Below, one piece after another: positions 4,414 through 62,866 of a stretch of 64,000 bases of DNA. The position numbers and the translations under genes are program-made. The stretch lies in contig CAYPCY010000002.1 of assembly GCA_964409385.1 (NCBI GenBank), forward strand, positions 79,941 through 143,940, given 5' to 3'. The first letter of the stretch is position 1, and every line of letters begins with the position of its first letter. A model generated the notes under the pieces. That model saw only the letters and a program-made list of their open reading frames with translations, had not been told where the DNA came from and did no database searches. This DNA comes from an uncultured Methanosarcinales archaeon. GTDB lineage: Archaea > Nanobdellota > Nanobdellia > Woesearchaeales > CAYPCY01.

Positions 4414-5244
4414 ATGAAATTAATATTCTTAATAATCCTCTTAACAGCATGTTCTATTCCTTCAGAAGAAGGTTCTATAGAGGTTGAATTCTGTCCTGGA
4501 TGTTATAATACCTTCATTAGTTTAATTAACAATTCTGAAAATATTTCTTGTGCTTTTTATGAAGTAGATAAGAAGATTATTTCCTTACTCGAAGAAAAGA
4601 AAGCTAACATATTCTTACATAATAAGACTTGGGGCCTGATGCACAACAAATATTGTGTTTTAAACAAAAAAACAGTAATTACAGGAAGTTTAAACCCTAC
4701 AAATAATGGCTTCACCAAAAACAGGAATAATATTGTAATAATAAATTCTTCAATACTAGCAAATAATTATTTATCAAAATTTAATAATTTAAAGTATGGA
4801 AGTAAAACTAAAATAATACACAAATTTAAGCTTTCAGGAATAATAATAGAAAATTATTTTTGCCCTGAAGATTCTTGCGAGGAGAAAGTAATTAATATTT
4901 TAGAGAAAGAAAAAAACATTAAATTTATGTTATTCACAATCACTTCAGATAGTATTGGAAATTTATTAAAAGAAAGAAACGCCTCAGGAATTATAGATCC
5001 TTTACAAAAGAACATTAAAGGTTCTGAATATAAAAAATTAAACACTGAAGTTTACAATTGCAAAGGAAAATTACATCATAAAGTTTTCTTTACCGATAAT
5101 ATTGTAATTACCGGAAGTTACAATCCTACAAATGCAGGAAACACAATTAATGATGAGAATATAATAATAATTCACAATAAAAAAATAGTAAACAAATTCA
5201 AGAAAGAATTCTCACTCCTTCAACATTGCACTTTCTCTGATTAG
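4414..5244 (+). CDS. Secreted/lipoprotein phospholipase-D-family (Nuc-like) nuclease with two HKD motifs
   Basis: N-terminal signal peptide with lipobox LLTAC|S. Two HxK(x4)D(x6)G motifs: MHNKYCVLNKKTVITGSLNPT and LHHKVFFTDNIVITGSYNPT. Confidence 0.7.
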   Translation: MKLIFLIILLTACSIPSEEGSIEVEFCPGCYNTFISLINNSENISCAFYEVDKKIISLLEEKKANIFLHNKTWGLMHNKYCVLNKKTVITGSLNPTNNGFTKNRNNIVIINSSILANNYLSKFNNLKYGSKTKIIHKFKLSGIIIENYFCPEDSCEEKVINILEKEKNIKFMLFTITSDSIGNLLKERNASGIIDPLQKNIKGSEYKKLNTEVYNCKGKLHHKVFFTDNIVITGSYNPTNAGNTINDENIIIIHNKKIVNKFKKEFSLLQHCTFSD

Positions 5245-11367: not shown

Positions 11368-12609
11368 ATGCCAAATGCAGGAGACTTTGTTAGAGTTGTA
11401 TTAAAAGATGAAACCTTGGACGGTATTGTAATGCCGTCTGAGGATAATTATTTAGTTCTTAAACTAGCTTCGGGTTATAACATTGGTTTAGAAAATAAAA
11501 AAGTAAAAAAAATAACTGTTTTAAAAAAATCTGTTTCTTCAAGAACAAAAAAAGAAAAACAACCTGTAAAGGCAGATATCACAATATTGCATACTGGTGG
11601 GACTATAGCTTCTAAAATTGATTATTCTACTGGTGCAGTTTCTGCAAAGTTCTCTCCTAGTGAACTTAAAACTTTATTTCCCGAATTAAAAAAGTTTGGA
11701 AAGATAAGGAGTATATTAATAGGTAATTTTCTTAGTGAGAATATTAGGTTTGAACATTATAATAAACTAGTAAAGACTATAAAAAAAGAAATTGATAATA
11801 CTCAAGGTATTATTATAACTCATGGTACTGACACTTTACATTATACTAGTGCCGCACTTAGTTTCATGCTACAAGGTCTTAATAAACCAGTTGTCTTGGT
11901 TGGTGCTCAAAGAAGTTCCGACAGGGGGAGTTCTGACGCTTCATTAAACCTTGTTTCAGCTGCTAAATTCATTAAAGAGAAAATTCCAGGTGTTTTTGTT
12001 TGCATGCACAATTCTGAAAATGATGATTCTGCAATTATTATGAATGGGGCAAATTGTAAAAAGTTACATTCTAGTAGGAGGGATGCTTTCAAACCAATTA
12101 ATATAGAACCGGTAGCTTTAATTTCTGAAAAAATAAAGTGGATTGAAAAGCCTAAAAAAACAGTTGAAAAATTAAAAGTTTATTATTTGAAAAATTTAAA
12201 AATTGGAATTTTAAAGGCACATCCTCAAATGTTTGTTGAGGAAATAAAGACTTTTGAAAACTTTGATGGTTTGATTATTGAAGGAACTGGCCTTGGTCAC
12301 TTACCCGTTGAAAAATTCGATTCTTCAACTTTAGAGAATGAAAGAATATTCAAGGAACTTTCAAGACTAACAAAGAAAATACCTGTATTTATGACTTCCC
12401 AAACTATTAGTGGAAGGGTTAATATGGAAGTTTATTCTCCAGGAAGAAAATTGAAAAAACTTGGAGTTTTAGGAAATTATAGTACTATGACTTCAGAAAC
12501 TGCTTTTGTAAAACTTGCGTGGGCATTAAGTAATTTTAAGAATGTTGAAGAAGTTATGATGACTAATTTTTTCGGAGAGAATTCTGACAGGTTGAAAGAT
12601 GGATTTTAA
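11368..12609 (+). CDS. gatD: Glu-tRNA(Gln) amidotransferase subunit D
   Basis: Asparaginase-like TILHTGGTIAS...HGTDT motifs. Followed directly by gatE with an 11-bp overlap. Confidence 0.85.
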   Translation: MPNAGDFVRVVLKDETLDGIVMPSEDNYLVLKLASGYNIGLENKKVKKITVLKKSVSSRTKKEKQPVKADITILHTGGTIASKIDYSTGAVSAKFSPSELKTLFPELKKFGKIRSILIGNFLSENIRFEHYNKLVKTIKKEIDNTQGIIITHGTDTLHYTSAALSFMLQGLNKPVVLVGAQRSSDRGSSDASLNLVSAAKFIKEKIPGVFVCMHNSENDDSAIIMNGANCKKLHSSRRDAFKPINIEPVALISEKIKWIEKPKKTVEKLKVYYLKNLKIGILKAHPQMFVEEIKTFENFDGLIIEGTGLGHLPVEKFDSSTLENERIFKELSRLTKKIPVFMTSQTISGRVNMEVYSPGRKLKKLGVLGNYSTMTSETAFVKLAWALSNFKNVEEVMMTNFFGENSDRLKDGF

Positions 12610-13996
12610 GAAGATTGGTTTTAAGTCAGGTTTGGAAATTCATCAACAATTGGATAGTTCTAAACTTTTTTGTTCTTGTCCTAGTTTGTTAAGGTATGAT
12701 AAGCCTGATTTTGTCATTAAAAGAAATTTAAGAGCGGTTGCTGGAGAGAAGGGCGAGATTGATGTTGCTGCTTTTTATGAACAATTGAAAGGGAAGTATT
12801 TTTTTTATGAGGGTTATGATGATACTACTTGCTTGGTTGAATTGGATGAGGAACCACCTCATAAAATAAATAAGGATGCTTTGAAGATTGCATTTTTAGT
12901 GTCTAAAATGATGCATTGTGATATTCCTAAACAAGTTCAGGTTATGAGAAAGACTGTTGTTGACGGGAGTAATACTTCTGCATTTCAAAGGACTGTATTG
13001 ATTGGTAGGAATGGTTGGATTAAAGTTGGTAGTAAGAAGGTTGGTATTAATTATTTAATTCTTGAAGAGGATGCTGCTAGAAGAGTTGCTGAAACTAAAA
13101 ATTCAGTAACTTATCGATTGGATAGGTTGGGGATTCCATTATTAGAAATTGTTACCGCTCCAGATTTAAAAACGCCTGAAGAAGTTAAAAAAGCAGCAGA
13201 GACTATTGGAATGATATTAAGATCCACAGGAAAGGTTAGGAGGGGTATTGGAACTGTCAGACAAGATATTAACATTTCTATAAGGGGACATTCAAGGGTT
13301 GAAATGAAAGGTGTTCAGGATTTAAAATTCATGATTAAGTATATTGAGGAGGAAGTTAAAAGACAGAAGAAAACAAAGGGAAAAGAAAAAGCTCATGTTA
13401 GGAATGTAAAATCAGATTTCACTTCCAAATTTTTAAGGCCTCTTCCAGGTGCTGCTAGGATGTATCCTGAAACTGATATTCCTTTGGTAAATCCTCAGCT
13501 TAAGAAGATTAAACTTCCTGAATTAATTAATGATAGAAAAAAAAGATTTGAAAAACTTGGTTTGTCTTCACAACTTGCAGAGCAGCTTTCTAAGTCTAAT
13601 AGAAGTTCTTTATTTGAAAAATTAGTAAAATTCGCTCCGGCAAGATTTGTTGCTGACTTGCTCATTAATGGTTTGAAGGATATGAAAACAAGACTTAATG
13701 CAAATACTTCTAAACTTTCAGATTCTGATTTTGTTAAGGTTTTTGAAGAATTTTCTAAAAAGAAAATTCCTAAAGATGCTGTTTATGAGATTCTTTCAAA
13801 AAAGGCACTTGGTAAAAAATTAGTGATTAAAAGTTTTAAGACTGATTCTTCTAAAGTGGAAAAAGATATTAAAACAATTGTTAAGAAATTTCCTGGTCTT
13901 TCTGAAAAGGCTTTAATGGGAGAAGTAATGAAGAAGTTCCGTGGTAAGATTGATGGAAAACTAGCTATGCAATTAATTCTTAAGTTTAAGAAGTGA
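12599..13996 (+). CDS. gatE: Glu-tRNA(Gln) amidotransferase subunit E
   Basis: N-terminal GLEIHQQL and CSCP GatB/E family motif. At 465 aa it is shorter than typical GatE (~620 aa). Confidence 0.8.
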   Translation: MDFKKIGFKSGLEIHQQLDSSKLFCSCPSLLRYDKPDFVIKRNLRAVAGEKGEIDVAAFYEQLKGKYFFYEGYDDTTCLVELDEEPPHKINKDALKIAFLVSKMMHCDIPKQVQVMRKTVVDGSNTSAFQRTVLIGRNGWIKVGSKKVGINYLILEEDAARRVAETKNSVTYRLDRLGIPLLEIVTAPDLKTPEEVKKAAETIGMILRSTGKVRRGIGTVRQDINISIRGHSRVEMKGVQDLKFMIKYIEEEVKRQKKTKGKEKAHVRNVKSDFTSKFLRPLPGAARMYPETDIPLVNPQLKKIKLPELINDRKKRFEKLGLSSQLAEQLSKSNRSSLFEKLVKFAPARFVADLLINGLKDMKTRLNANTSKLSDSDFVKVFEEFSKKKIPKDAVYEILSKKALGKKLVIKSFKTDSSKVEKDIKTIVKKFPGLSEKALMGEVMKKFRGKIDGKLAMQLILKFKK

Positions 13997-20271: not shown

Positions 20272-20296
20272 ATATGAACCAATAAATTATTAATTA

Positions 20297-24525: not shown

Positions 24526-24635
24526 TCCTTTTCAAAGGATAGAACCCAAAGTATGTGTTTCCCTACGGTCAAGCACATTATTTTATAGTACTATCAAGTT
24601 GTTTTTGCGAGATATTTTTCATTTTATTCAAGCCC

Positions 24636-31652: not shown

Positions 31653-31665
31653 TGCTTTTCTTCTA

Positions 31666-39287: not shown

Positions 39288-39790
39288 TTAATATTATTTT
39301 ATTACTTTTAGTTAGTTTCTTCTTGGATTCTATCTTTTTAGATATTTTTACTAACCTTCAATTTTTAGGATTAACTGGATTTTTTGAAATCTTTTCAATT
39401 TTTAATATTTTAATAGTGTTATTTATATTTACAGGTCTTGTTTTTTATGTTGTAAAGCCTAGTTTTAAAAGTTTAAAATCATTATATACTGGTTTATTAC
39501 TTACTTTTTTAGTGGTTGGTTTTCTGAAGATGATTATTGCAAGGCCTCGTCCTTTTGAAGGGTTTGAATCTGCCTTTTACAGTTTTCCTTCAGGTCATGC
39601 TGCCATTGCTTTTTCTAGTATTCCAGCATTTAAGAATTTTCCAAAGCCACTATTTTATTCTTTGATTGCATTCGCTGTTTTTGTTGCAGTCAGTAGGTTA
39701 TATTTGCAAGTTCATTACTTTAGTGATGTTGTTTTTGGAAGTGTTATTGGTTATTTTCTTGGAAGACTAGGAGGCTTGCTAAATGAATGA
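39269..39790 (+). CDS. PAP2-family lipid phosphatase
   Basis: KxxxxxxRP (KMIIARPRP), PSGH (SFPSGHA), SRxxxxxHxxxD (SRLYLQVHYFSD). Confidence 0.75.
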   Translation: MEEEEMINIILLLLVSFFLDSIFLDIFTNLQFLGLTGFFEIFSIFNILIVLFIFTGLVFYVVKPSFKSLKSLYTGLLLTFLVVGFLKMIIARPRPFEGFESAFYSFPSGHAAIAFSSIPAFKNFPKPLFYSLIAFAVFVAVSRLYLQVHYFSDVVFGSVIGYFLGRLGGLLNE

Positions 39791-40337
39791 ACTTTTTAGA
39801 CAATTATTTCATATTCTTTTAGGACTTTCAATAATAATTTCAGTAATTTTAGGTTTTGGTATTCCTTTCATTGTTTGTTTACTTATTCTTGGATTAATTA
39901 TTTTGTTATTAGTTAGGTTTAACTATTTTGGATCAATTACTGAAGTCGTTTCTGACATGACTAGGGATCATGAGAATATTCCTGGACTTGGAGGGTTTAC
40001 TTTAGTTCTTGGTTGTTTGATTCCATTATTGTTTTTTGATTATAGGATTGCATTGGTCGGGATTTCTGTATTAACTTTTGGGGATGCTGCAAGTACTGTG
40101 TTTTCTAGATTTGTTAAGACTAAAAAACTACCTTATTCTAGTAAGACTTATGGTGGTACTATTGCTGGTTTTACATTTGGTTTCTTAGGAGCATTACCTT
40201 TTATTAATTTACTAGGTGCTTTTCTTGCTGGTTTTGTAGGCAGTATTACAGAATCTTTTGATGAGTTTTTCGATGATAATTTAATAATTCCAGTTATCGT
40301 CTCATTATTTGTTTATTTCATTAGTCCTACCTTATAG
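39783..40337 (+). CDS. Cytidylyltransferase-superfamily membrane protein (CDP-archaeol synthase CarS / dolichol-kinase-like)
   Basis: C-terminal FGDAAST...KTYGGTIAGFTFGFLG resembles the CTP-transferase/dolichol kinase/CarS motif. About 5 TM helices. Confidence 0.45.
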   Translation: MNELFRQLFHILLGLSIIISVILGFGIPFIVCLLILGLIILLLVRFNYFGSITEVVSDMTRDHENIPGLGGFTLVLGCLIPLLFFDYRIALVGISVLTFGDAASTVFSRFVKTKKLPYSSKTYGGTIAGFTFGFLGALPFINLLGAFLAGFVGSITESFDEFFDDNLIIPVIVSLFVYFISPTL

Positions 40338-40802: not shown

Positions 40803-42719
40803 ATGATTATTACTTTTCCGGATAGATCAAAGAAGAAGTTTAAGAAAGGAATTACTTCTTTGGAAGTTGCAGAGAGTATTGGCTCTAGACTAGCTAATGA
40901 TGCTATTGCTGCAAAAGTAGATGGTGTATTGGTTGATTTGTCCAAGAAGATCAGTAAGGATTCTAAACTAGAGATATTAACTGGTTCTTCTCCTGAGGGT
41001 GTTGATGTGTTGAGACATTCTTGTGCTCATTTATTATCTCATGCTGTTAAGAGATTATTTCCTAAAGCATTACCTACTATTGGGCCTGTTATTGAGAATG
41101 GTTTTTATTATGATTTTGACTCTTCCCCTTTTTCAGACGAGGATTTAGAAAAGATTGGGTCAGAAATGAAAAAAATTGTTAAGGAGAAAATTCTTGTTGA
41201 AAGGTTTGAACTTTCTAAGAAGGATGCTTTGAAAATGTTTAGTAAGAATAAGTACAAGAAAGAATTAATTAATGAGTCTAAAGGTAAACTTTCTTATTAT
41301 AAACAAGCGGATTTTAAGGATTTGTGTACTGGTCCTCATGTTATTAATACATCTCGGCTTAAAGCGTTTAAGATTACTAAGAGTTCTGGTAGTTATTGGA
41401 GGGGGGATTCTAAGAATAAACAATTACAAAGAATTTATGGTGTTTGTTTTTCTGATAAGAAAACTTTAAACTTGCATTTGCAGATGATGGAAGAGGCTTT
41501 GAAAAGGGATCATAAGTTGCTTGCTGAAGGAAAACTCTATATGATTTCTGATCTTGTCGGTAAGGGTCTTCCTATTTGGCTTCCTAAGGGAGAAATTGTT
41601 AAGAAGGAAATTGAAAATTATGCTGTTGAGATTGAGGATGAGGCTGGTTTTGAAAGAGTTTCAACCCCTCATATTGCCAAGGAAGAATTATTCCTGGCTT
41701 CTGGACATTTACCTCATTATGAGGATGATATGTTTCCTAAAATGAAGATGGATGATGGAACTTATTATTTGAAGGCTATGAATTGTCCTTTACATCATAT
41801 TATTTTTGGTCATGGAGTTAGGAGTTATAGAGAATTGCCTTTAAGACTTGCAGAGTATGGTACTGTTTATAGGAATGAAATGTCCGGTGTTCTTTCTGGA
41901 CTTTTAAGGGTTCGTATGCTTTCTATGAACGATGCTCATATTTATTGCAGTAAGGAACAAATAGGTCCTGAAATTAAGAATGTTATTTCTATGATTAATG
42001 ATTATTACAAAACTTTTGGTTTTAAGAATTATTATTTTAGGCTTTCGTTATGGGATCCTAAGAATAAGGAGAAGTATATTAGTGAACCTGCTAATTGGAA
42101 GTATTCAGAGGCGCAGTTGAGGAAGGTTTTAAAAGAGTTAAAAGTAGATTTTATTGAGGTTGAGGATGAAGCTGCATTTTATGGTCCTAAGATTGATATT
42201 CAGTTTAAGACGGTTACTGGTAGGGAAGAAACTTTATCTACTATTCAATTAGATTTTGCTGCTAAGAAAAGGTTTGGTTTAAAATATATTGATAAGAAGG
42301 GTAAGGTAAATAATGATGTTTTTGTTATTCATCGTGCTCCTCTTTCTGTTCATGAGAGGTTTATTGCTTTTTTGATAGAGCATTATGGAGGTAATTTTCC
42401 TTTATGGCTTTCTCCTGTTCAGGTTAGAATTTTACCTATTAGTGACAAGTTTAATTCTTATGCTAATTCTTTGAAGAAAGAGCTTCCTTTCAGGGTGGAG
42501 GTTGATTCTAGGGCTGAATCGATTAATAAAAAGGTTAGAAATGCTCAGTTGGAGAAGATTCCAGTCATGGTTATTATTGGTGGGAAGGAAATGGTGGGTA
42601 AGACTGTTTCTGTTAGGACTTTGGATGGTAATGTTAAATTTGGTATTAAAAAATCTGTTTTTATTAAGAAAATTACTGAGTTTATAAGTTCTAGATCTAG
42701 ACAGGTTAGTTTCAAATGA
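40803..42719 (+). CDS. thrS: Threonyl-tRNA synthetase
   Basis: TGS N-domain, class II aaRS motifs, zinc-binding residues, C-terminal anticodon-binding domain. Confidence 0.9.
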   Translation: MIITFPDRSKKKFKKGITSLEVAESIGSRLANDAIAAKVDGVLVDLSKKISKDSKLEILTGSSPEGVDVLRHSCAHLLSHAVKRLFPKALPTIGPVIENGFYYDFDSSPFSDEDLEKIGSEMKKIVKEKILVERFELSKKDALKMFSKNKYKKELINESKGKLSYYKQADFKDLCTGPHVINTSRLKAFKITKSSGSYWRGDSKNKQLQRIYGVCFSDKKTLNLHLQMMEEALKRDHKLLAEGKLYMISDLVGKGLPIWLPKGEIVKKEIENYAVEIEDEAGFERVSTPHIAKEELFLASGHLPHYEDDMFPKMKMDDGTYYLKAMNCPLHHIIFGHGVRSYRELPLRLAEYGTVYRNEMSGVLSGLLRVRMLSMNDAHIYCSKEQIGPEIKNVISMINDYYKTFGFKNYYFRLSLWDPKNKEKYISEPANWKYSEAQLRKVLKELKVDFIEVEDEAAFYGPKIDIQFKTVTGREETLSTIQLDFAAKKRFGLKYIDKKGKVNNDVFVIHRAPLSVHERFIAFLIEHYGGNFPLWLSPVQVRILPISDKFNSYANSLKKELPFRVEVDSRAESINKKVRNAQLEKIPVMVIIGGKEMVGKTVSVRTLDGNVKFGIKKSVFIKKITEFISSRSRQVSFK

Positions 42720-44341
42720 GGTTCTTAATTATTTTGCTATTGTTACTGCCTTCTGTCTTAGCCGTGGAATCTCATATGACTTTACTTACTATTTCTGAAT
42801 CTGGAGAGTTTGGTGGGACTGCGGATTTGTATTTGAGGATTGAGGCTGGTAACGGTCAGGTTTTTATTGATACTATGCCTTTGACGAAGATGGATACTCA
42901 AATTACTATGAGGTTTGCTAAGGAGTTTGCTTGTTCTTTTACTAATACTGATTGTTCTAGGCTTGATTTTTTTTATACTATTAGGGCGTCTGCTTCTATA
43001 GTTGGTGGTCCTAGTGCTGGTGCTCCTGCTACTTTACTTACTATTTCTGCTTTGGATGGTGTTTCTTTAGATTCTTCTGCTGTTGTCACAGGCACTATTA
43101 ATTCTGGGGGTATTATAGGTCCTGTTGGGGGTATTAATGAGAAGATTATTGCTGCTAGACATGAGGGATTTGCTAAGGTTTTAATTCCTAAATGGGCTTT
43201 TGCTAATGATACTAACCTTTCAATTTTCACTTCTGGTATTGAGGTTGTTAAGGTTGTTACTGTTGATGAGGCTTTAACTATTCTTACGGGAGTGGATTAT
43301 TTGTATGATAATGGTGAGATTATTGTTGATGAAGAATATACTGAAAAAATGATTGAAACATCTAATGAAATGTGTAATAGAACTTTTAAATTAATTAATG
43401 AAACTGGTATTGTTCCCGCATCTTATAATTTGAGTTTGATTTCTTTGGAGGATGAGAATTATTATTCTGCTGCTAGTTTTTGTTTTTCTTCTAATATTCA
43501 GTTGAGAAAGAGTATTTTGGAGAATTCTAGTATTGATTTTATTGTTCTTGGGTTGGAGAGGTTGGGGGAGCAGATTGTTTCGTTTAATGAGTTTCTTGAT
43601 AATAAGGAGTTAAGGACTATTACTGACTTTCAAACTTTTATTATTGTTAAGGAGCGTTTGTTAGAGTCTGAGCGTCTTTTGGATTCTTTTTGGAATTTGA
43701 GTCTTAATGATTCTTCAATTTATTATACTGCAGCCTTGGCTTCTGAGAGATTTTATAGTGCTGTTGTCTGGAGTGGTTTTTTTGATTTGAGTGGTGAAGT
43801 TTATGATTTGGATTCTTCTCATTTGAGAGAGACTTGTTTTAGGAAGTTGGAGGAGGCAGATCAAACTATTAGTTATGTTAAGTATTACCTACCTAGTTTT
43901 ACTAGGGAGAGTAAGAAGACTTTAGATAAGGCTAGGGATAAAAGACTTTTGGGAGAGTATGAACTTTGTATTTTTGAGGCTTCCAAGGCAAAGGCGGAGG
44001 CGGGAATTATTGCTACGGCTTTGGGTATTAGTAGTGATTCTATTGATGATCTTGTTAATGAAAAGTTGAAGATTGCTTCACGAGCTATTTCTAGAGAGCA
44101 GGATTCTGGAATTTTCCCTATTCTTGCTTATTCTTATTATGAGTATGCTAGTTCGTTGAGAGAGTCTGATCCTTATTCTGCTTTACTTTATGCCGAGTAT
44201 GCTTTGGAGTTGTCTAATGTTAGGATGTATTTTGAGAAGGAAAGTTTTGATTTTAGGGTTCCTAAGTTGGATATTCTTTTTGCTTTGATTATAGGAATAT
44301 TTATAGGTTCTTTCATTACTTACTTTAATGTTCGAAAATGA
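42716..44341 (+). CDS. Secreted, C-terminally membrane-anchored Lon-like S16 serine protease without an ATPase domain (COG1750-type)
   Basis: Signal peptide. Lon proteolytic-domain catalytic Ser motif GGPSAG and downstream Lys (INEKIIAARHEG). About 300 aa of unknown C-terminal domain plus a final TM helix. Confidence 0.65.
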   Translation: MRFLIILLLLLPSVLAVESHMTLLTISESGEFGGTADLYLRIEAGNGQVFIDTMPLTKMDTQITMRFAKEFACSFTNTDCSRLDFFYTIRASASIVGGPSAGAPATLLTISALDGVSLDSSAVVTGTINSGGIIGPVGGINEKIIAARHEGFAKVLIPKWAFANDTNLSIFTSGIEVVKVVTVDEALTILTGVDYLYDNGEIIVDEEYTEKMIETSNEMCNRTFKLINETGIVPASYNLSLISLEDENYYSAASFCFSSNIQLRKSILENSSIDFIVLGLERLGEQIVSFNEFLDNKELRTITDFQTFIIVKERLLESERLLDSFWNLSLNDSSIYYTAALASERFYSAVVWSGFFDLSGEVYDLDSSHLRETCFRKLEEADQTISYVKYYLPSFTRESKKTLDKARDKRLLGEYELCIFEASKAKAEAGIIATALGISSDSIDDLVNEKLKIASRAISREQDSGIFPILAYSYYEYASSLRESDPYSALLYAEYALELSNVRMYFEKESFDFRVPKLDILFALIIGIFIGSFITYFNVRK

Positions 44342-45959: not shown

Positions 45960-46673
45960 ATGCAAGCAATGCCTCATCAATTAATGGGTTATGATAGAGC
46001 AATTACAATGTTTTCTCCTGATGGGAGATTGTTACAGGTTGAATATGCTAAGAAGACTGTTAAGCAGGGTAGTACTGCTATTGGAATGGTTTGTAAGGAT
46101 GGTGTTATTTTAGTTACTGATAAGAGACTGGTTGATAAACTGGTTGTTCCTGAGGGTATTGAGAAGATTTGGCAGATTGACGAGCATATTGGTGCTACTG
46201 CGTCTGGTATTATTAGTGACGCGCATGTTTTGATTGAGAAGTCTAGAGGGACTGCTCAGCAGCATCAGGTAACTTATGATTCTCCTGCTGATATTCTTAC
46301 GATTGTTAAGGATGTTTCTAGTCTTAAACAAATTTGTACTCAGTCTGGTGGTCTTAGGCCTTTTGGTGTTTCTTTACTGATTGCGGGTGTTGATAATGGT
46401 GATTGTAAACTTTATGAGACTGATCCTACTGGTATTTATTTCCAGTATAAAGCTACTGTTATTGGTGAGGGGGAGAACGATATTGAGAAAATTCTTCATA
46501 AGGAGTATAGTGACAATTTAAGTATGGAGGCGGGTTTGAAACTTTGTCTTTCTGCTATGAAGAAAGTTTTGGATGATACTTTTAATGCGGATAGGGTTGA
46601 TGCGGCGTTTATTTCATTAAAGGATAAGAAGTTTAAGAAATTCTCTTTAGAGAGTATTAAGAAAGCATTATGA
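45960..46673 (+). CDS. psmA: Proteasome alpha subunit
   Basis: GYDRAITMFSPDGRLLQVEYA N-terminal signature. Confidence 0.9.
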   Translation: MQAMPHQLMGYDRAITMFSPDGRLLQVEYAKKTVKQGSTAIGMVCKDGVILVTDKRLVDKLVVPEGIEKIWQIDEHIGATASGIISDAHVLIEKSRGTAQQHQVTYDSPADILTIVKDVSSLKQICTQSGGLRPFGVSLLIAGVDNGDCKLYETDPTGIYFQYKATVIGEGENDIEKILHKEYSDNLSMEAGLKLCLSAMKKVLDDTFNADRVDAAFISLKDKKFKKFSLESIKKAL

Positions 46674-47377
46674 GACAAACATTTGATAAGGAAAAAGTAA
46701 GTTTTAACTTTGCAAGGTTAAATAAGGAAGGCAAGATTTTTGAAGTGGTTGTTGATCCTGACCTTGCTATTAAGTTTAGGAGGGAGAAACCTGGTGATAT
46801 TTCTGAAGCTCTTCATAGTCAGGATATTTTTAAGGATGCGAATAGGGGCGAGTTGGCTAATGAGCATGAGTTGAATGATTATTTTAAGACTGATAATAAG
46901 TTGGAGATTTGTAAGAGAATCTTGTTTGAGGGTGAAATTCAACTTTCTCAGGAGTATAGGGAGAAGCTTCGTGAGGAGAAAAGGAATAGGATTATTGAGT
47001 TAATCCATCAGACTGCTTTTGATCCTAGGACTAATACGGTTCATCCTAGGCAAAGGATTGAAAATGCTTTTGGTGAGGCTAAGATTCGTGTGGATGAGCA
47101 TTTGTCTGCTAAGAATCAGCTTCCTGATATTATAAAAAAATTAAGGCCGATATTGCCTATTAGTTTCGAACAAAAAATTGTTGAACTAATAATTCCAGCT
47201 GATAATGCTGGTAAGTGTTATTCTCAAATCAAGCAAAATTATGATCCTGATTCTGAAGAGTGGCTTTCGGATGGTTCTTTGAAAATGACCATTAAGTCTC
47301 CTTTGGGTTTGGTGAATGATTTGTTGGATCTTGTGAATTCTATAACTCATGGTAGTGCGGATATTAAAGTAAAATAG
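46670..47377 (+). CDS. sdo1: Ribosome maturation protein SBDS/Sdo1
   Basis: SBDS family N-terminal FYSH-domain pattern; canonical position in the superoperon. Confidence 0.8.
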   Translation: MRQTFDKEKVSFNFARLNKEGKIFEVVVDPDLAIKFRREKPGDISEALHSQDIFKDANRGELANEHELNDYFKTDNKLEICKRILFEGEIQLSQEYREKLREEKRNRIIELIHQTAFDPRTNTVHPRQRIENAFGEAKIRVDEHLSAKNQLPDIIKKLRPILPISFEQKIVELIIPADNAGKCYSQIKQNYDPDSEEWLSDGSLKMTIKSPLGLVNDLLDLVNSITHGSADIKVK

Positions 47378-48085
47378 GTGAAAAATAAAATGTTAAAATG
47401 TAAAAATAAGGAAATAGTTGTTCCGGGAGAAATATTATGTGAAGGTATGGATTTCCTGCCTAGCTACGGAACGTATAGGGATGATAAAGTAATTAGATCA
47501 TCTATAGTGGGTCTTGTTAATGTTGACGGTAAGGTCATTAAGATAATGCCTACTTCTGGAAGGTATTTTCCTAGACGGGGAGATACTATTATTGGAAGAG
47601 TTTTTGATATTACAATGAATGGGTGGAGATTGAATATTAACAGTCCATACTCTGCTTTTTTGACTATGATGGAGGCTTCTTCTCAGTTTATTAAGAAGGG
47701 TTCTGACTTGAGTAGGATTCTTCCTATGGAGGGTTACATGGTTGGTAAGATAACTAATGTTACTGGTCAGAATTTGATTGATTTGACTATGAAAGGTCCT
47801 GGTTTGAGAAAACTTGATGGGGGAGTTATTGTTAATGTTAGTTCTTCTAAAGTGCCTAGGATTATTGGCAGGCAGGGTTCTATGATTAAGTTAATCAAGG
47901 AAGCTACTGGTTGTTTTATAACGGTTGGTCAGAATGGTCTTGTTTGGCTGTCTGGTGAGGCTAAGAATGAAGCGGTTGCTATTAAGGCGATTGAATTGAT
48001 TAATGAGAATGGTCATAAGAAGGGTTTGACTGATGAAGTCAAGAAGTTTCTGGAGAAGGAAACTGGTAAGAAATTAGAGGTTTAA
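47378..48085 (+). CDS. rrp4: Exosome subunit Rrp4 (S1 + KH)
   Basis: VVPGEIL N-terminus, S1 domain, KH motif GRQGSMIKLI. Confidence 0.85.
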   Translation: MKNKMLKCKNKEIVVPGEILCEGMDFLPSYGTYRDDKVIRSSIVGLVNVDGKVIKIMPTSGRYFPRRGDTIIGRVFDITMNGWRLNINSPYSAFLTMMEASSQFIKKGSDLSRILPMEGYMVGKITNVTGQNLIDLTMKGPGLRKLDGGVIVNVSSSKVPRIIGRQGSMIKLIKEATGCFITVGQNGLVWLSGEAKNEAVAIKAIELINENGHKKGLTDEVKKFLEKETGKKLEV

Positions 48086-48086
48086 A

Positions 48087-48779
48087 ATGTATAAGAAAAG
48101 ATTAGACGGTAGAAAACCATCTGAATTTAGGAAGGCAAGTGCTGAAGTTGGTGTTGTTAAGAATGCTGTAGGCTCTGCTCGTTTTCAGATTGGTAAGACT
48201 TCGGCTTATGCTGCAGTTTATGGTCCTAGGGAGATTATTCCTAGGCATAAAATGTCTGCGAAGTCTGGAGTTTTAAGATGTAATTATAATATGATGCCAT
48301 TTTCTGGTATGGGTGACAGGGTTAGACCTGGTAATAATAGGAGATCAACTGAAATTTCTTATGTTACGGAGAATTCTTTACTTCCTGTGTTGGATTTGAA
48401 GAAATTCCCTAATACGGGAGTTGATGTTTTTATTGAGTTGGATCAGACTGACGCTGGTTCTAGATGTGCAGGTATTACTGCTGCGTCTTTGGCTTTGGCT
48501 GATGCTGGTTTTGCAATGAAGGATTTGGTAGTTGCAGTGGCTGTTGGTAGTGTTGATGGAACTTTAGTTGTTGATTTGAGTTATGAAGAGGAAGATTTTG
48601 ATGCTCCTGTAGCGGATATTCCTTTTGCTATAATTCCTAGTACTGGCGAGGTTACTTTATTACAGATGGATGGTAAACTTTCTCAAGAGACTTTGATGAA
48701 AGCTTATGATATGGCTAAGAAGGCTGCGGATGAGATTTATGATATTATGAAGTCTGCATTAAAGAAAAGGTATGATTAA
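48087..48779 (+). CDS. rrp41: Exosome subunit Rrp41 (RNase PH)
   Basis: RLDGRKPSEFR and GSAR RNase PH motifs. Confidence 0.85.
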   Translation: MYKKRLDGRKPSEFRKASAEVGVVKNAVGSARFQIGKTSAYAAVYGPREIIPRHKMSAKSGVLRCNYNMMPFSGMGDRVRPGNNRRSTEISYVTENSLLPVLDLKKFPNTGVDVFIELDQTDAGSRCAGITAASLALADAGFAMKDLVVAVAVGSVDGTLVVDLSYEEEDFDAPVADIPFAIIPSTGEVTLLQMDGKLSQETLMKAYDMAKKAADEIYDIMKSALKKRYD

Positions 48780-49548
48780 AATGAATGAGACTATGAAGAA
48801 ACATTTACAAAATTCCATTTCTAATGGTATTAGATTGGATGGTAGGAAGCTTGAAGAGTTTAGAAAGTTGGAAGTTGAGACTGGCGTTGTTGCTACTGCT
48901 GAAGGTTCTGCTAGGGTTAAACTTGGTAATACTGAATTGATTGCTGGGGTTAAGATGGCTGTTATGTCGCCTTATTCTGACAGGCCTGATGAGGGGACTT
49001 TAATGGTTAATGCTGAATTGACTGCTATGAGTCATGAAAAGTATAAATTAGGACCTCCTGAGGCTGATGCTATTGAAATAGCAAGAGTGGTTGATAGGGG
49101 TATTAGAGAAAGTCATGCTATTGATGTTGGAAAACTTTGTATTACTAAGGGCGAAAAGGTTTGGATGGTTGGTATTGATATTGTTACTATTAATACTGAT
49201 GGTAATTTGATTGATGCTGCGGGTATTGCTACTTTGGCTGCTATTAAGGATGCGTTCTTTCCTGAATATGATGGTGAGAATGTTGATTATAAGAAGAAGA
49301 CTAAGAATAAAGTCCCTTTGAATTCTGAACCTTTACCAGTTACTGTTTTTAAGATTGGTAAGGATTTGGTTTTAGATCCTACTTTTAGTGAAGAGGAGGC
49401 TGCTGATGCTAGAATTACAGTTACTATTTTGGCTGATGGTACTTTGTGTTCTTTACAAAAGGGTGGTAATGCTACTTTCACGAGGGATGAATTGGATAAG
49501 GCTACTAAATTAGCTGTTAAGATGAGGAAGAAATTAAAATGGAATTAA
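48772..49548 (+). CDS. rrp42: Exosome subunit Rrp42
   Basis: IRLDGRKLEEFR...EGSARV inactive RNase PH-like fold. Confidence 0.85.
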   Translation: MIKMNETMKKHLQNSISNGIRLDGRKLEEFRKLEVETGVVATAEGSARVKLGNTELIAGVKMAVMSPYSDRPDEGTLMVNAELTAMSHEKYKLGPPEADAIEIARVVDRGIRESHAIDVGKLCITKGEKVWMVGIDIVTINTDGNLIDAAGIATLAAIKDAFFPEYDGENVDYKKKTKNKVPLNSEPLPVTVFKIGKDLVLDPTFSEEEAADARITVTILADGTLCSLQKGGNATFTRDELDKATKLAVKMRKKLKWN

Positions 49549-51187: not shown

Positions 51188-51394
51188 ATGTGCGATTTCA
51201 AAAACTGGGACAAGAAAGTTAAAAAACTTAACATTTTTGACATTGGTTTGATTAAACTTTCAGTTTTAGCATTTACTTTATTCTTGTTAGCAATACTTCC
51301 TAAACTTAATGAGTTTCTAATGAGTATTCATTGGGGTTGGTATTTAGCTATTGCTATTATAGTTTCTTACAAGCCTTCAAAGAAGTTTTTCTAA
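51188..51394 (+). CDS. Small two-TM hypothetical protein
   Basis: 68-aa hydrophobic ORF. Confidence 0.3.
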   Translation: MCDFKNWDKKVKKLNIFDIGLIKLSVLAFTLFLLAILPKLNEFLMSIHWGWYLAIAIIVSYKPSKKFF

Positions 51395-52593
51395 TGTCTT
51401 CTAGTTCTTCTTTTATAGAATGGTTTTCCCCTATTATTCCTTTTGCTCTTAAAATCGGATTTTACTTGGACTGTTTTTATCCTTTCAAGAACTGGAGTTT
51501 CTACCTTATCAATTCTAAATTTAGAGTATGCATTTAACACTTTTGAAAAGTTGTCATAATCCACGTCACTTATTAGGTTGATTGCTTCTCCTTCTTCTCC
51601 TGCTCTTGCTGTTCTTCCTATCCTGTGAACATAGTCTTTTGCATCCATTGGAATTCCATAATTGTATACATGTGATACATTGTCTATATGTAATCCTCTT
51701 GCTGCAACGTCTGTACATACTAGAACAGCTACTGCCTTGTCATCGAATGTTTTCATCATTCTCATTCTTTTATTCTGTGTCAATCCACCGTGAATAGCCA
51801 CTGCTTTAACACCATTAACTTTCAGGTTCTTAGCAACAAAATCAGTTGTTTTCCTAGTATTGCAAAATACCATTGCTTGTTCTACACTTTCGTGTCTTAA
51901 CAATTGAACTAGCAAGCTTAATTTTTTATTTCTAGAAATATCATAATAGATTTGTTTTAGCTTGCTTGGATCTACATGTTGAACTGCGGATATTTTCACT
52001 GCATTATTCATGTACTTGTTAGATAATCTTCTAATCTCGTGTGAGATAGTTGCTGAAAAGAATAATGTTTGTTGTCTAGAATGACATTTTTTTATTATTT
52101 TCTCTACATCATCTATGAATCCCATATCTAACATTCTGTCTGCTTCATCTAGTACTAAGATTTTAACTTTGGACAAGTTTATAGTTCCCCTTTGTAAATG
52201 ATCTAACATTCTTCCAGGAGTTGCTACTACAACGTCCGTCTTTCTTAAATCATTAATTTGCGGATTTATAGATACTCCTCCATAAATTGCTGTTGTTCTC
52301 AAATGTTTTGAGTAAGAAAGTTGTTTTAAAGAATTCTTTACTTGCTCTGCCAATTCTCTTGTTGGTGTTAATACTATTGCTTGTATTCCCTTTCCAGGAA
52401 AGGAATTCTCTACAATTCCACAACCAAAAGCAAGTGTTTTTCCAGAACCAGTTGCTGATTCTCCAATAACATCCTTTCCTTTAATGATGTGTGGTATTGA
52501 TTTTTCTTGTATTTCTGTAGGTTTTGTGAACTTTAATTGCTCTATAACAGCAAATAAGTCTTTACTTAAACCTAAATTTTTAAATAAATTCAT
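51391..52593 (-). CDS. DEAD-box RNA helicase
   Basis: Q motif, Walker A ATGSGKT, PTRELA, DEAD, SAT, HRIGRTARAG. Confidence 0.85.
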   Translation of the reverse strand: MNLFKNLGLSKDLFAVIEQLKFTKPTEIQEKSIPHIIKGKDVIGESATGSGKTLAFGCGIVENSFPGKGIQAIVLTPTRELAEQVKNSLKQLSYSKHLRTTAIYGGVSINPQINDLRKTDVVVATPGRMLDHLQRGTINLSKVKILVLDEADRMLDMGFIDDVEKIIKKCHSRQQTLFFSATISHEIRRLSNKYMNNAVKISAVQHVDPSKLKQIYYDISRNKKLSLLVQLLRHESVEQAMVFCNTRKTTDFVAKNLKVNGVKAVAIHGGLTQNKRMRMMKTFDDKAVAVLVCTDVAARGLHIDNVSHVYNYGIPMDAKDYVHRIGRTARAGEEGEAINLISDVDYDNFSKVLNAYSKFRIDKVETPVLERIKTVQVKSDFKSKRNNRGKPFYKRRTRRH

Positions 52594-53907: not shown

Positions 53908-54594
53908 ATGGCAGATCTTAAATCATGGATTGATGAACAAAAAGCGAAGGGTTTTACTGAAGATCAATTAAAGGAACATCTTAAAAAGAATGGTTATGAT
54001 GATGCTAAGATTAATGAAGCGTTCACTCCAGAACCTCCAAGTCCTCAATTAAGTACTGCTGAACAACCAACTCCAAATCCTGTTCCTGAACAAACAACAA
54101 TTCCTGAAGGTTCTTTACCTAAAAAATCAAAATCTATAAATTTTATTATTATTGGTGTTATTGCAGTTTTAGCAATTGCATTCATTGTTTATTTGAACAT
54201 GGGTCCTACTAATTGTCCTGATGAGGCTTGTTTTACAGAAAATTTGAAAAAGTGTGAAAAGGCAGTTTTTGTTTCTGAAGGGAATGATGGAAAGATAAGA
54301 CAAACAATTACTAGTGGTAGAAGTTTAGACGAGCAAGGTAATATTGAGTGGTGTAATGTTAAGACTGAAGTTCTCACATCACCAATTCAGGAAGTTGTTG
54401 GTTTGAGTATGGTTTGTAAGATGCCTATTAGTAGTATTTCTATTCCTGAATGTAATGGTGAATTGTGGGAGTACACTCAAGCTCAAATGCAGGCGGCATT
54501 GGATGCCATGGGTGATTTAATAAGTAATACTACAAGTGGGGGAATGCCTGATGTTGATTTACCTGATGGTTTTCCAAGCCTTGACTTTCCATAA
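53908..54594 (+). CDS. Membrane-anchored hypothetical protein with Cys-rich extracytoplasmic domain
   Basis: Cytoplasmic N-domain, Pro-rich linker, one TM helix, C-domain with 8 Cys. Confidence 0.45.
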   Translation: MADLKSWIDEQKAKGFTEDQLKEHLKKNGYDDAKINEAFTPEPPSPQLSTAEQPTPNPVPEQTTIPEGSLPKKSKSINFIIIGVIAVLAIAFIVYLNMGPTNCPDEACFTENLKKCEKAVFVSEGNDGKIRQTITSGRSLDEQGNIEWCNVKTEVLTSPIQEVVGLSMVCKMPISSISIPECNGELWEYTQAQMQAALDAMGDLISNTTSGGMPDVDLPDGFPSLDFP

Positions 54595-55332
54595 CCAGTA
54601 AATACTTATTATTATCATTATTAGATTTAGCCATTGTCCAACTCCTAAATTAAAATAAAGCGTTTCTTCTTTGTAAAAGTCTATTATGAACCTTCCTAGA
54701 GCGTATAAGAAAACAAATGAATAAAACACAACTCCTGGCTTTAATTTCTTAAATAAATAAAGAGGTAGTAAAATAACAAACACAGTAAGATTCTTTAACG
54801 AAGCATAAAGTTGGTATGCGTGTCTGTAAACTAATTCGCCATTGGAAGTTTCATTATTGAAATTAACTCCTAAGGAAGAATCAGTAATTTTGCCAACTAA
54901 TTCTGAATTAATATAATTTGCAATTCTTCCTAGGAACAAGAAGAAGCTTAAGGGCAGCATTAACAAATCGGCTAATTTATAGAAATTAATTTGTTCCTTC
55001 TTACAAAAGAAGTATGAATAAACAACCCCGCCTAATAAACCACCGTGAAAACTAAGGCCTCCCTTCCATATTTTAATTATTTCTATTGGATTACTTAAGT
55101 AGTATCCTGGACTCCATACTAAAACTTCAAAAATTCTAGCTCCTAAAATACTAAAGACCATCACATAAAAAATATAATCATCTATCTTCCCTACAGGAAA
55201 TTTCATCTTACGACTTAATTTCTTAATTAGATAATAACTAAATAAGAAACCGATTAAATAAACTAGTCCGTAATACCTAATCTGCAATCCTAGAATTTCA
55301 AAAGCGACAGGATCTATATTGTTGATGAACAT
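54559..55332 (-). CDS. lgt: Prolipoprotein diacylglyceryl transferase (bacterial type)
   Basis: Aligns along its full length with E. coli Lgt: DPVAFEILG..YYGLVYLIGFLF; signature WKGGLSFHGGLLGGVV; GRIANYINSELVGK; RHAYQLYAS; LYALGRFIIDFYKE. Confidence 0.8.
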   Translation of the reverse strand: MFINNIDPVAFEILGLQIRYYGLVYLIGFLFSYYLIKKLSRKMKFPVGKIDDYIFYVMVFSILGARIFEVLVWSPGYYLSNPIEIIKIWKGGLSFHGGLLGGVVYSYFFCKKEQINFYKLADLLMLPLSFFLFLGRIANYINSELVGKITDSSLGVNFNNETSNGELVYRHAYQLYASLKNLTVFVILLPLYLFKKLKPGVVFYSFVFLYALGRFIIDFYKEETLYFNLGVGQWLNLIMIIISIYWLWKVKAWKTIR

Positions 55333-55417
55333 ATAAATTAAAAAAGCAATTAATTATTTAATATTATCGCAACCTTAATATACTTCTTATAACAACTTTT
55401 AACTAAAGGGGTGTATT

Positions 55418-60911: not shown

Positions 60912-61948
60912 TGTACGAACCTTGTGAAGATTCTTTCCTTCTTCAAAAGTCAGTAAGGAAATATTCCGGAAGTAAAGCTTTAGACATGGGTACTGGTTCT
61001 GGAATTATTGCAAAAACTTTGGACAAGCATTTTAAGAGGGTTGTTGGTGTTGATATTAATCCTGAAGCCATTAAATATTGTAAAAGTAAATACGAAGGTA
61101 TAACTTTCAAAAATTCTAATTTATTCTCTAATGTTATTGGAAAGTTTGATTTAATAAGTTTTAATGCTCCCTACCTGCCTAATGACCCTAGAGTTAAAGA
61201 TATTGCTTTAGATGGTGGTAAGAAAGGTAATGAGTTAATAATCAAATTCTTAAAAAAAGCAATTCATTTTCTTAAGAATGATGGAAAAATAATTTTGTTA
61301 TTTAGTTCATTATCTCATCCAAGAAATATTTTTGAAACAGCAGATAATCTTTTTCTAAAATATAAATTATTAAATTCTGAAAAGTTAGATTTTGAAGAAT
61401 TATTTGTTTACGAGTTTTCATCAAAGATTATTGGGAAGGGAAAGAGAGGATTAGTTTATCAAGAAGGAGATTATGCTGTTAAAATAATTAATTCTAAAAC
61501 AGACACTTTAAAATTTGAAGCGGACATTCTAAAAAAAATTAATAAGAAAGGAATAGGTCCCAAATTATATTCTTTCAAGAATAATAAGTTAAAGATCGAA
61601 TTAGTAAAAGGAGAAAGAATTTTAGATTTCTTAAAGAATGCCACTAAACAAAAGAAAGTAAAGATGTTAAAAGAAGTTTTTAGGCAATTGAGAATTCTTG
61701 ACTTAATGAATATTAACAAGTCTGAAATGAAAAATCCTTACAAGCATATTATAATTGGTAAAATGCCTGTATTGATAGATTTTGAAAGGGCTCGTTATTC
61801 AGAAAATCCGCAAAATATTACTCAATTCTGTAGTTTTTTAGAAAATAACAAAATAGTTTCCTTCAAGGATCTTCCAAAAAACTACAAGAAAAATCCGTCT
61901 GAAGAAAACTTTAAAAAATTAGAATTTTCTCTTCTTGCTACTGATTAA
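60908..61948 (+). CDS. Fusion protein: Mtq2/PrmC-type glutamine N5-methyltransferase + Bud32/RIO-like atypical kinase-like domain
   Basis: N-domain YEPCEDSFL, LDMGTGSG, FNAPYLP, LDGGKKG match yeast Mtq2 (YEPAEDSFL, FNPPYVP, LLGGKDG). C-domain has Gly-rich loop GKGKRGLVY, Lys strand YAVKI and LIDFERA in place of DFG, but no canonical HGDL catalytic loop. Confidence 0.6.
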   Translation: MMYEPCEDSFLLQKSVRKYSGSKALDMGTGSGIIAKTLDKHFKRVVGVDINPEAIKYCKSKYEGITFKNSNLFSNVIGKFDLISFNAPYLPNDPRVKDIALDGGKKGNELIIKFLKKAIHFLKNDGKIILLFSSLSHPRNIFETADNLFLKYKLLNSEKLDFEELFVYEFSSKIIGKGKRGLVYQEGDYAVKIINSKTDTLKFEADILKKINKKGIGPKLYSFKNNKLKIELVKGERILDFLKNATKQKKVKMLKEVFRQLRILDLMNINKSEMKNPYKHIIIGKMPVLIDFERARYSENPQNITQFCSFLENNKIVSFKDLPKNYKKNPSEENFKKLEFSLLATD

Positions 61949-62866
61949 TTCTTCTTCCAAAGATAATTCTATTAACAGTTCTTTATACCTGTTTCTTATG
62001 GTGACTTCTGTAACTCCTGCAACATCAGCGACTTCTCTTTGCGTTCTTTTTTCTCCATTGATTAATGCTGCAACATATAATGAAGCTGCAGCAATTCCTG
62101 TAGGTCCTCTTCCTGAAGTTAATTCTGCTTCTTGACAGAGTTCAATAATCTCTATTGATTTTGATTGGGTTTCAGGACTTAATTCTAGGCTTGAAGAGAA
62201 TCTTGGAATGTAATCTACTGGATTACTAGGTAGTACTGTAACTTGTAATTCCCTAGTTATGAACCTGTAGGTTCTTCCAATTTCTTTCTTTTCAATACCT
62301 GAAACTTCTCCCAATTCATCTAATGTTCTTGGAATATCATGTCTTCTACAAGCAGCGTATAAGGAGCCTGTAACTACTGATTCCATACTTCTTCCCCTAA
62401 CTAGGCCTTTCTGTACTGCCATAGTGTAAATCCTTGCTGCTTCTTCCTCTACTGATTTAGGAAGTTTTAGGCAGGATGATATTCTTTTTAATTCTGCAAG
62501 TGCTAATTTCAAGTTTCTTTCTATAGCTGTTGATATTCTGTACTGCCACTTTCTTAATCTGAAGAATTTGTTTTTGTCTTTTCCTCTAAGTCCGTAAAGG
62601 TCTGCTTTTCTTCCAACTTCAGTTCCTAGTCCTTGGTCGTATTGTGTGTAGCTCATTGGAGCTCCAGTTCTTCTTCTTTTATCTGCAGTTTCCGAATCGA
62701 AACCTCTGAATCTATCGTCAGAATCAACCATTTTATCTTCAAGAACTAATCCGCATTCTTTACAGATAACTTCGCCACGTTCATTATTCCAAGAAAGATC
62801 TTCGCCCTTACATTCAGGACACTGCTTTAACATAGTCTGATACATAATAACACCCCGTAACCTCAC
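61919..62866 (-). CDS. tfb: Transcription initiation factor IIB
   Basis: N-terminal zinc ribbon CPECKGEDLSWNNERGEVICKECG; two cyclin-fold repeats. Confidence 0.9.
   Translation of the reverse strand: MRLRGVIMYQTMLKQCPECKGEDLSWNNERGEVICKECGLVLEDKMVDSDDRFRGFDSETADKRRRTGAPMSYTQYDQGLGTEVGRKADLYGLRGKDKNKFFRLRKWQYRISTAIERNLKLALAELKRISSCLKLPKSVEEEAARIYTMAVQKGLVRGRSMESVVTGSLYAACRRHDIPRTLDELGEVSGIEKKEIGRTYRFITRELQVTVLPSNPVDYIPRFSSSLELSPETQSKSIEIIELCQEAELTSGRGPTGIAAASLYVAALINGEKRTQREVADVAGVTEVTIRNRYKELLIELSLEEELISSKKRKF

Follow-up and report, generated by a model that had tools for sequence, protein, structure and literature searches.

A bacterial-type prolipoprotein glyceryl transferase gene in a Woesearchaeales genome and its predicted relatives across DPANN archaea

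The stretch of DNA analysed here (64,000 nucleotides, referred to below as the window; positions 79,941 to 143,940 of contig CAYPCY010000002.1, assembly GCA_964409385.1) carries on its minus strand, at 54559..55332, an open reading frame (ORF) with an ATG start that encodes a protein of 257 residues with seven predicted transmembrane (TM) helices. The gene, lgt, is predicted to specify a phosphatidylglycerol-type prolipoprotein (diacyl)glyceryl transferase. In bacteria Lgt is the enzyme that anchors surface proteins to a lipid. An earlier note on this DNA had proposed a bacterial-type Lgt in an archaeal genome, with a lipobox protein encoded in the same window, and the core of that reading proves correct on all tests run. 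The alignment with bacterial Lgt along the full length that it described is recovered with the Pfam family LGT (PF01790), which matches above its curated threshold over profile positions 1-239 of 240 (E 2.2e-62, 210.9 bits, cutoff 24.9), and the NCBIfam equivalog TIGR00544 (lgt) scores 173.2 bits against a curated cutoff of 118.9. By sequence the sole solved relative is Escherichia coli Lgt (5azb, E 6e-28). An AlphaFold2 model, for which the input was 33 homologues, has seven long helices, a mean pLDDT of 91.3 and a pTM of 0.89; when it was compared with the PDB by Foldseek a single match with E < 0.001 was returned, again 5azb (E 6.8e-12, TMq 0.74), all remaining matches having E > 0.7. Because the family profiles, the residue mapping given below and the match of the modelled fold agree, the protein is identified as an Lgt by sequence, motif and predicted fold.

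Global alignment with the Lgt of E. coli K-12 gives an identity of about 30%. The residues compared are those that we take to be the important ones in the E. coli enzyme (Sankaran 1997, Pailler 2012, Mao 2016). Eight of the nine that were mapped are identical in the window protein: Y26 corresponds with Y21, H103 of the HGGL motif with H96 (also followed by GGL), R143 with R136, N146 with N139, E151 with E144, G154 with G147, Y235 with Y210 and R239 with R214, and the ninth, E243, is replaced by Asp (D218). The Lgt signature, noticed earlier as WxGGxSFHGGLxG, is present as IWKGGLSFHGGLLGG at residues 88-102 by sequence count (84-98 if calculated back from the coordinates), encoded at about 55039..55083 on the minus strand (within a few codons), and contains H96. 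Across 33 DPANN homologues most of the mapped functional residues either never vary or are kept in at least 90% of the sequences; within the signature, W89, G91, G92, G97 and G98 never vary, and the conservation of H96 is 90% or higher. R143 and R239 of E. coli Lgt are cited as essential (Hong et al. 2025, PMC12462473).

The window, with a GC content of ~30%, encodes a broad set of archaeal informational and housekeeping proteins. These include the archaea-specific Glu-tRNAGln amidotransferase GatD/GatE (11368..13996, plus strand; GatD_N and Asparaginase domains, and GatB_N/GatE), the proteasome alpha subunit, SBDS and the exosome proteins Rrp4, Rrp41 and Rrp42 (45960..49548, plus strand; from the Pfam annotation of the identical locus L001), and TFIIB/TFB (61919..62866, minus strand; PF08271 and PF00382 in L001 and in L099). 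Cdc48, a TruD-type pseudouridine synthase, a DRG-type GTPase, an archaeal class-I CCA-adding enzyme, Rpb7/RpoE and ribosomal protein S24e are also encoded, and the genes near lgt comprise RNase P Rpp14 and RpoK as well as the proteasome, SBDS, exosome and TFIIB genes. The flanks outside the window add eIF6, prefoldin, an SRP54-type GTPase and PolB. The locus recurs, with an identical Lgt and unchanged neighbours, in at least four independent assemblies, of which three are ENA metagenome assemblies of different samples and one is from Logan; in these and in a sister species lgt is placed between the gene for isoleucyl-tRNA synthetase (IleRS) and the exosome cluster. The host contig is archaeal, as had been supposed, and the host is a DPANN archaeon of the small, symbiotic type.

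The candidate substrate is encoded at 4414..5244 on the plus strand, and is a putative secreted Nuc/Zucchini-like phosphodiesterase of the PLD superfamily that has two HKD motifs and begins with a lipobox signal peptide. The PLDc_2 profile matches it in two stretches (E 4e-26), and among solved structures it is closest to Zucchini/MitoPLD and the Nuc endonuclease. Its N-terminus reads MKLIFLIILLTAC followed by SIPSEEG, with a canonical L-T-A-C lipobox ending at Cys13; the lipoprotein signal peptide and lipobox (MKLIFLIILLTA; from the sequence and a PROSITE-like lipobox scan) are encoded at 4414..4452, plus strand, Cys13 being the TGT codon at 4450-4452. The textbook lipobox attributed to this nuclease is thus present, and MKLIFLIILLTACSIPSE gives an example sequence for the lipobox peptide. 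When the scan was applied to all ORFs of the window this protein was the one convincing case; of the two other matches, one is an internal start and one an ORF that overlaps a tRNA-Ser gene. Signal peptides of the signal-peptidase-I type are carried by two window proteins, those encoded from 10117 and 42716, and the lipobox protein is thus one of three secreted proteins. The second of these genes (42716-44341, plus strand) joins the signal peptide MRFLIILLLLLPSVLA, followed by VESH, to a Lon C-terminal protease domain alone, lacking the ATPase, and its product, a predicted secreted or membrane protein, appears from its sequence to be an extracytoplasmic Lon-like protease.

Homologues of the PLD-like protein indicate how this membrane anchor varies. 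Among the 120 listed, a strict lipobox ([LVI][ASTVI][GAS]C) ends the signal peptide in 49 and a relaxed lipobox is found in 12; several N-terminally truncated homologues also show a lipobox, and most of the others have an uncleaved N-terminal TM helix. The named homologues among the matches listed carry DPANN-type archaeal labels. Since this predicted ectoenzyme exchanges its lipobox for a TM helix, the family provides good indirect evidence that the lipobox is a working membrane anchor in these archaea, and supports functional lipidation. Textbook lipobox ORFs occur at 3 of 238 in ~195 kb of DPANN loci, compared with 13 of 1293 in bacterial loci, and the related DPANN loci that carry them include L008 and L088. 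Abundant lipoproteins have been predicted in DPANN archaea (Hong et al. 2025, PMC12462473). As a separate observation, seven of the PLD homologues (P0166, P0174, P0185, P0191, P0205, P0220 and P0230) are ~400-436 residues long and have an extra lamin-tail domain (PF00932), mostly together with a lipobox.

The gene had earlier been taken, by implication, for an isolated oddity; searches place it instead in a large Lgt clade that spans DPANN archaea of the Woesearchaeota/Nanoarchaeota type. A protein search with the window Lgt returned 4120 proteins at E <= 1e-10, of which the top matches comprise one that is 100% and one that is 87% identical, followed by others at 40-54%. The organism-labelled matches listed are named Candidatus Woesearchaeota, Nanoarchaeota or Nanoarchaeia archaeon, with one exception. 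This exception, P0040 (locus L089), is labelled Alphaproteobacteria, and its contig carries Spt5-NGN, L11, TIM and DUF357 genes that are syntenic with a Woesearchaeota contig; it is a mis-binned archaeal contig. On a 421-kb Woesearchaeota contig lgt is flanked by S3Ae, NucS, Spt5-NGN, SecE and FtsZ genes and adjoins a HAD hydrolase gene, as in the window, and a 1.02-Mb JGI contig also carries an lgt of the clade, with no domain-diagnostic markers among its neighbours within ±10 kb. A second search, seeded with the Lgt of a GTDB locus labelled Methanosarcinales (L017), yielded ~118 more clusters with almost no overlap with the first; its organism labels are Woesearchaeota and Nanoarchaeota only, the nearest labelled relative being 70% identical, and the Methanosarcinales label of L017 is, judged by these relatives, probably wrong. 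A presence of Lgt in Methanosarcinales, which L017 and a second locus, L047, would imply, was set aside for the same doubt about the label, as the closest and all other named relatives belong to Woesearchaeota or Nanoarchaeota. Altogether the clade holds > 230 protein clusters, and those with archaeal names are assigned to Woesearchaeota, Nanoarchaeota, Nanoarchaeia or simply 'archaeon'. In one Woesearchaeota GTDB representative (L068) the lgt frame is in two pieces, covering profile positions 1-189 and 202-249 and lying ~720 bp apart (9187-10720), an arrangement that may be explained by an insertion, by a pseudogene or by faulty assembly.

The relationship of this clade to bacterial Lgt was addressed with a neighbour-joining (NJ) tree of 199 sequences. 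Besides the query it holds 126 sequences from the top hits and the GTDB archaeal loci, and 72 of bacterial Lgt (from GTDB species representatives and E. coli). The 127 sequences that carry no bacterial label, counting P0040 from the mis-binned contig among them, group in one clade with a bootstrap of 91%, and all 72 bacterial sequences lie outside it; the clade consists of 18 archaeal-labelled sequences, 107 unlabelled top hits, the query and P0040, and the bootstrap for the same clade is 74% when L017 is left out. The nesting within bacteria that the earlier note had raised is not demonstrable for any sampled bacterial group. The median identity of the query is 46% to the DPANN clade and 35% to the sampled bacteria, with a maximum of 42% (to a Pelagibacter). 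In this tree the DPANN clade adjoins Desulfurellaceae, Bacteriovoracaceae and alphaproteobacteria. As named archaeal matches are confined to one DPANN group, an old transfer from bacteria to DPANN archaea is most likely, as the more economical reading of these sequences, and the gene has most likely been inherited vertically within the Woesearchaeota/Nanoarchaeota-type lineage since such an acquisition long ago.

With the family, the fold and the conservation of functional residues of the protein established, together with its archaeal host, its spread through the lineage, the purifying selection described below and the lipobox proteins of the same and related genomes, we consider it probable, on these grounds, that the ORF is a functional orthologue of bacterial Lgt. 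Such an enzyme, with its seven TM helices in the cytoplasmic membrane, would bind an anionic glycerophospholipid of the phosphatidylglycerol type through R136 and R214, the equivalents of E. coli R143 and R239, and would move the glyceryl moiety of the lipid, as a thioether, on to the +1 Cys of lipobox signal peptides on Sec-exported proteins. This lipidation would tether proteins such as the PLD/Nuc-like phosphodiesterase, through Cys13, to the cell surface. The donor could be either archaetidylglycerol, with its ether-linked isoprenoids, or scavenged bacterial phosphatidylglycerol. Within this scheme the catalytic activity is an inference, as are the nature of the donor lipid and any later removal of the signal peptide, and our confidence in any statement on the lipid donor or on the origin of the gene is much lower than in the functional assignment.

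Several points weigh against this reading, in its account of origin or of function. When distant outgroups (five Bacillota and one cyanobacterial Lgt, from plasmids) are added to the NJ tree, they stand apart from all other sequences in 100% of replicates, attach beside or within the DPANN clade, and lower the bootstrap for DPANN monophyly to 21%. This placement is read as probable long-branch noise of a crude distance method; taken as they are, the NJ trees favour no donor lineage and, strictly, no direction of transfer. The 64-kb window contains a single lipobox protein, and its signal peptide is short (12 residues). No match to Lsp (PF01252) was found by Pfam among the window ORFs scanned, and a search by phmmer with E. 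coli LspA and by a seven-sequence hidden Markov model (HMM), built from plasmid-borne lspA genes, found none in the window, its two flanks and related DPANN loci (~290 kb, partly redundant; best E 0.17), the positive control being the training sequences alone; the HMM likewise found no Lsp in the bacterial loci scanned. The lsp search suggested earlier thus covers ~85 kb of the host genome and related loci, and its null result is uninformative because this is a small part of the genome and because lsp does not as a rule lie close to lgt. The lipids of archaea are of the opposite glycerol stereochemistry and carry ether-linked isoprenoids, and to our knowledge no Lgt has been shown to use lipids of this type. 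GGGP and DGGGP synthases are reportedly absent from Woesearchaeota, which are probably lipid scavengers (PMC8421398), and this bears on the lipid that Lgt can draw on as donor.

Among the alternatives, the one that survives best concerns origin: the DPANN clade might be the vertically inherited remnant of an ancestral archaeal Lgt, and not a bacterial import. It would accord with the suggestion that AliA (arCOG02177) is possibly a derivative of the Lgt family (Hong et al. 2025, PMC12462473). The failure of the clade to nest in any sampled bacterial group is compatible with such a remnant, as are the commonest split with the Bacillota and cyanobacterial outgroups, which sets DPANN plus outgroup against the Proteobacteria-type group, and the depth of divergence within the clade (median identity 46%), which equals that among the sampled bacteria (45%). 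Set against this, named archaeal matches are confined to the Woesearchaeota/Nanoarchaeota group, the DPANN sequences are closer to Lgt of the Proteobacteria type (median identity 38%) than to that of Bacillota and Cyanobacteria (30%), and the NJ trees that supply the split are crude and prone to long-branch artefacts. We regard an ancestral archaeal Lgt as improbable, and prefer the old transfer from bacteria.

A second alternative accepts the family and questions the function. The enzyme might have been repurposed for an acceptor other than the lipobox, or for remodelling phospholipids scavenged from a host, and not serve lipoproteins at all. No Lsp was detected nearby, the organism is probably unable to make its own lipids, and the periplasmic head that connects TM4 with TM5 is more compact than that of E. 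coli Lgt, by ~18 residues, all of which would suit such a change. The residues for Lgt catalysis and phosphatidylglycerol binding are nevertheless retained, with E243 as Asp, and textbook lipobox proteins occur at a frequency like that in bacteria, in a setting where one DPANN protein family either keeps its lipobox or exchanges it for a TM helix. Repurposing is thus very unlikely, and we retain lipoprotein modification as the probable function.

Genes in the window that relate to membrane lipids comprise those for a flippase-like LPG_synthase_TM protein, two DedA/VTT proteins, a PAP2 phosphatase, a GT4 glycosyltransferase, a PIG-L deacetylase and a GDSL esterase, none of which pinpoints the donor lipid of Lgt. 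The flippase-like membrane protein (13973-15178, minus strand; LPG_synthase_TM/TIGR00374) is weakly similar to a glucosaminyl-phosphatidylglycerol flippase, and its bacterial relatives handle modified phosphatidylglycerol, which bears on the question of the host's lipids. A cluster of bacterial flavour at 38697-40337 encodes a DedA/VTT protein with a weak match to the undecaprenyl-phosphate transporter UptA, a PAP2 protein with a weak match to undecaprenyl-diphosphatase, and a 184-residue protein with six TM helices and no family match; to judge from these matches the cluster possibly serves polyprenyl-phosphate recycling.

The immediate surroundings of lgt are conserved in the sister species (locus L096, 87% amino acid identity in Lgt), where the same order is found: IleRS, a Na+/H+ exchanger, lgt, a 236-residue protein and a HAD protein. 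In the window lgt and the divergently transcribed exchanger gene are separated by an AT-rich intergenic region of 85 bp (55333..55417), presumed to act as promoter, and the same arrangement is present in L096. The convergent neighbour on the other side (53908..54594, plus strand) encodes a protein of 228 residues with a single TM helix, and the 3' ends of this gene and of lgt share 36 nt, an overlap that is also retained in L096. This neighbour matched no Pfam or NCBIfam family; it has a Pro-rich linker and a Cys-rich outer domain. Comparison of lgt between the two species gives a synonymous divergence (dS) of about 1.0 and a ratio of nonsynonymous to synonymous divergence (dN/dS) of 0.08, close to the 0.09 of ileS. 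These rates indicate that lgt is under strong purifying selection and is in use, and with the conserved synteny they imply that any transfer of lgt was old.

They also bear on the possibility that lgt was acquired recently, or was caught in a local inversion, and may stand outside the physiology of the host. The earlier note had observed that the third-codon composition of lgt runs against the local strand trend and took this to be consistent with acquisition or local inversion. The observation holds weakly: the GC skew at third codon positions (GC3 skew) of lgt is near zero (-0.04 in the coding orientation, with an AT3 skew of -0.06), unlike the strongly positive values of the plus-strand genes around it, and its third-position GC content (GC3) of 0.291 is 1.5 standard deviations over the window mean. 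Minus-strand genes at 51391-52593, 61919-62866 and 29914-32379, however, have an equally weak plus-strand GC3 skew (absolute value <= 0.13), while two others (16313-17862) follow the strong local trend. The inference drawn from the skew does not hold. With a GC content of 0.302 lgt is close to the window mean of 0.309, its codon-usage distance of 0.55 is what genes of this length usually show, and neither these values nor its skews stand out for a gene on the minus strand. The signal is a strand effect and gives no evidence of recent acquisition. A recent horizontal transfer was rejected on this ground and because the sister species has an old, syntenic and selected orthologue; with homologues at 40-54% identity throughout the DPANN clade, we consider this origin still less likely than repurposing, and inheritance within the lineage stands as the preferred account.

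Elsewhere in the window the third-codon skew does change sign. In the gene block 17925-23735 the plus-strand GC3 and AT3 skews are reversed, the surrounding genes having +0.4 to +0.8: GC3 skew is -0.86 for the minus-strand gene 17925-18995, -0.37 to -0.48 for plus-strand genes at 19075-21364, and -0.07 for 21612-23735 (AT3 skew +0.36). The block stops just before a tRNA-Met gene (24450-24528), a dip in the cumulative skew curve accompanies the reversal, and the pattern resembles that of a skew switch point or of an inverted segment of ~6 kb. At 4414-7258 (4.4-7.3 kb) the skew is also reversed, less strongly. Beyond the tRNA gene, at 24965-26361, lie two adjoining and overlapping genes for RNase HII paralogues, of 203 residues and of 262 residues with an N-terminal extension.

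The weakest alternative, that the contig is bacterial, chimeric or mis-binned and the Lgt an ordinary bacterial gene, can draw on the Alphaproteobacteria label of P0040 and on the unreliable bin labels of the clade (L017 and L047 as Methanosarcinales), and is scarcely credible and was rejected, given the archaeal markers that share the window with lgt, the recurrence of the locus in four independent assemblies and the sister species, the Woesearchaeota synteny around P0040 itself, and the fit of lgt to the window in GC content and codon usage.

The earlier statement that archaea are described as lacking lgt, lsp and lnt homologues agrees with the literature: a review of 2018, a paper of 2025 (PMC12462473) and a follow-up of 2026 state that no archaeal homologue of Lgt, Lsp or Lnt is known. 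Full-text searches that paired Lgt, diacylglyceryl transferase or COG0682 with DPANN, Woesearchaeota, Nanoarchaeota or Pacearchaeota found no report of an archaeal Lgt. The archaeal Lgt is thus new to the specialist literature searched and not to the databases, since many of these proteins from DPANN metagenome-assembled genomes already carry the name Lgt in the annotation made by the NCBI and JGI pipelines; it is a known enzyme family in an unrecognised place. The route of lipobox lipidation in archaea was unexplained until AliA and AliB were identified in 2025 (PMC12462473), and a large DPANN clade with textbook Lgt qualifies the repeated statement that archaea have none.

A wider proposal, which we advance tentatively and rate a little below an even chance, is that Woesearchaeota/Nanoarchaeota-type DPANN archaea rely on a canonical Lgt to make their lipoproteins, against what has been published, and either use archaeal ether lipids for this or contain bacterial-type phosphatidylglycerol in their membranes. 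If so, this would be the first Lgt to act on archaeal ether lipids (archaetidylglycerol, of opposite glycerol stereochemistry), or else an instance of bacterial-type phosphatidylglycerol in archaeal membranes. A bolder variant would see in the DPANN clade a relic of an ancestral archaeal Lgt and the source of AliA. The question bears on the 'lipid divide', on the membranes of lipid-scavenging DPANN cells and on the descent of AliA from Lgt, and the DPANN Lgt offers a directly testable system for lipoprotein biogenesis and lipid usage in these archaea.

Comparison with known systems places the window protein closest to bacterial Lgt, as represented by the E. coli enzyme (PDB 5AZB/5AZC; PF01790; TIGR00544). 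Homology extends over the full length, the seven predicted TM helices and the HGGL signature are shared, both essential arginines and the equivalents of Y26, N146, E151, G154 and Y235 are present, and the predicted fold matches 5AZB only. In contrast to E. coli Lgt, the window protein is smaller (257 compared with 291 residues), with the reduced head and the E243 to Asp replacement described above. Unlike bacterial Lgt it belongs to a DPANN archaeon whose membrane lipids are probably archaeal or scavenged, and no Lsp partner has been seen for it so far in the ~85 kb of its genome scanned. The nearest bacterial sequences among the GTDB species representatives are Proteobacteria-type Lgt from Pelagibacterales, Bacteriovoracaceae and Desulfurellaceae, which are up to 42% identical to it and of similar length and AT-rich composition; they fall outside the DPANN clade in the tree without distant outgroups (bootstrap 91%), and the affinity to Pelagibacter may be compositional.

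The other point of reference is the pair AliA and AliB (arCOG02177 and arCOG02178), the lipoprotein lipidation proteins of the archaeon Haloferax volcanii (Hong et al., Nat Commun 2025, PMC12462473). The similarity of AliA to Lgt is reported as marginal only in that study, so a PF01790 protein would not be expected in either arCOG; NCBIfam scans of the unannotated membrane ORFs of the window, made without an AliA sequence or profile, gave nothing relevant to AliA. The two systems have the same presumed role, lipidation of the lipobox Cys in an archaeon, and AliA, like Lgt, has two conserved arginines in its putative catalytic pocket.

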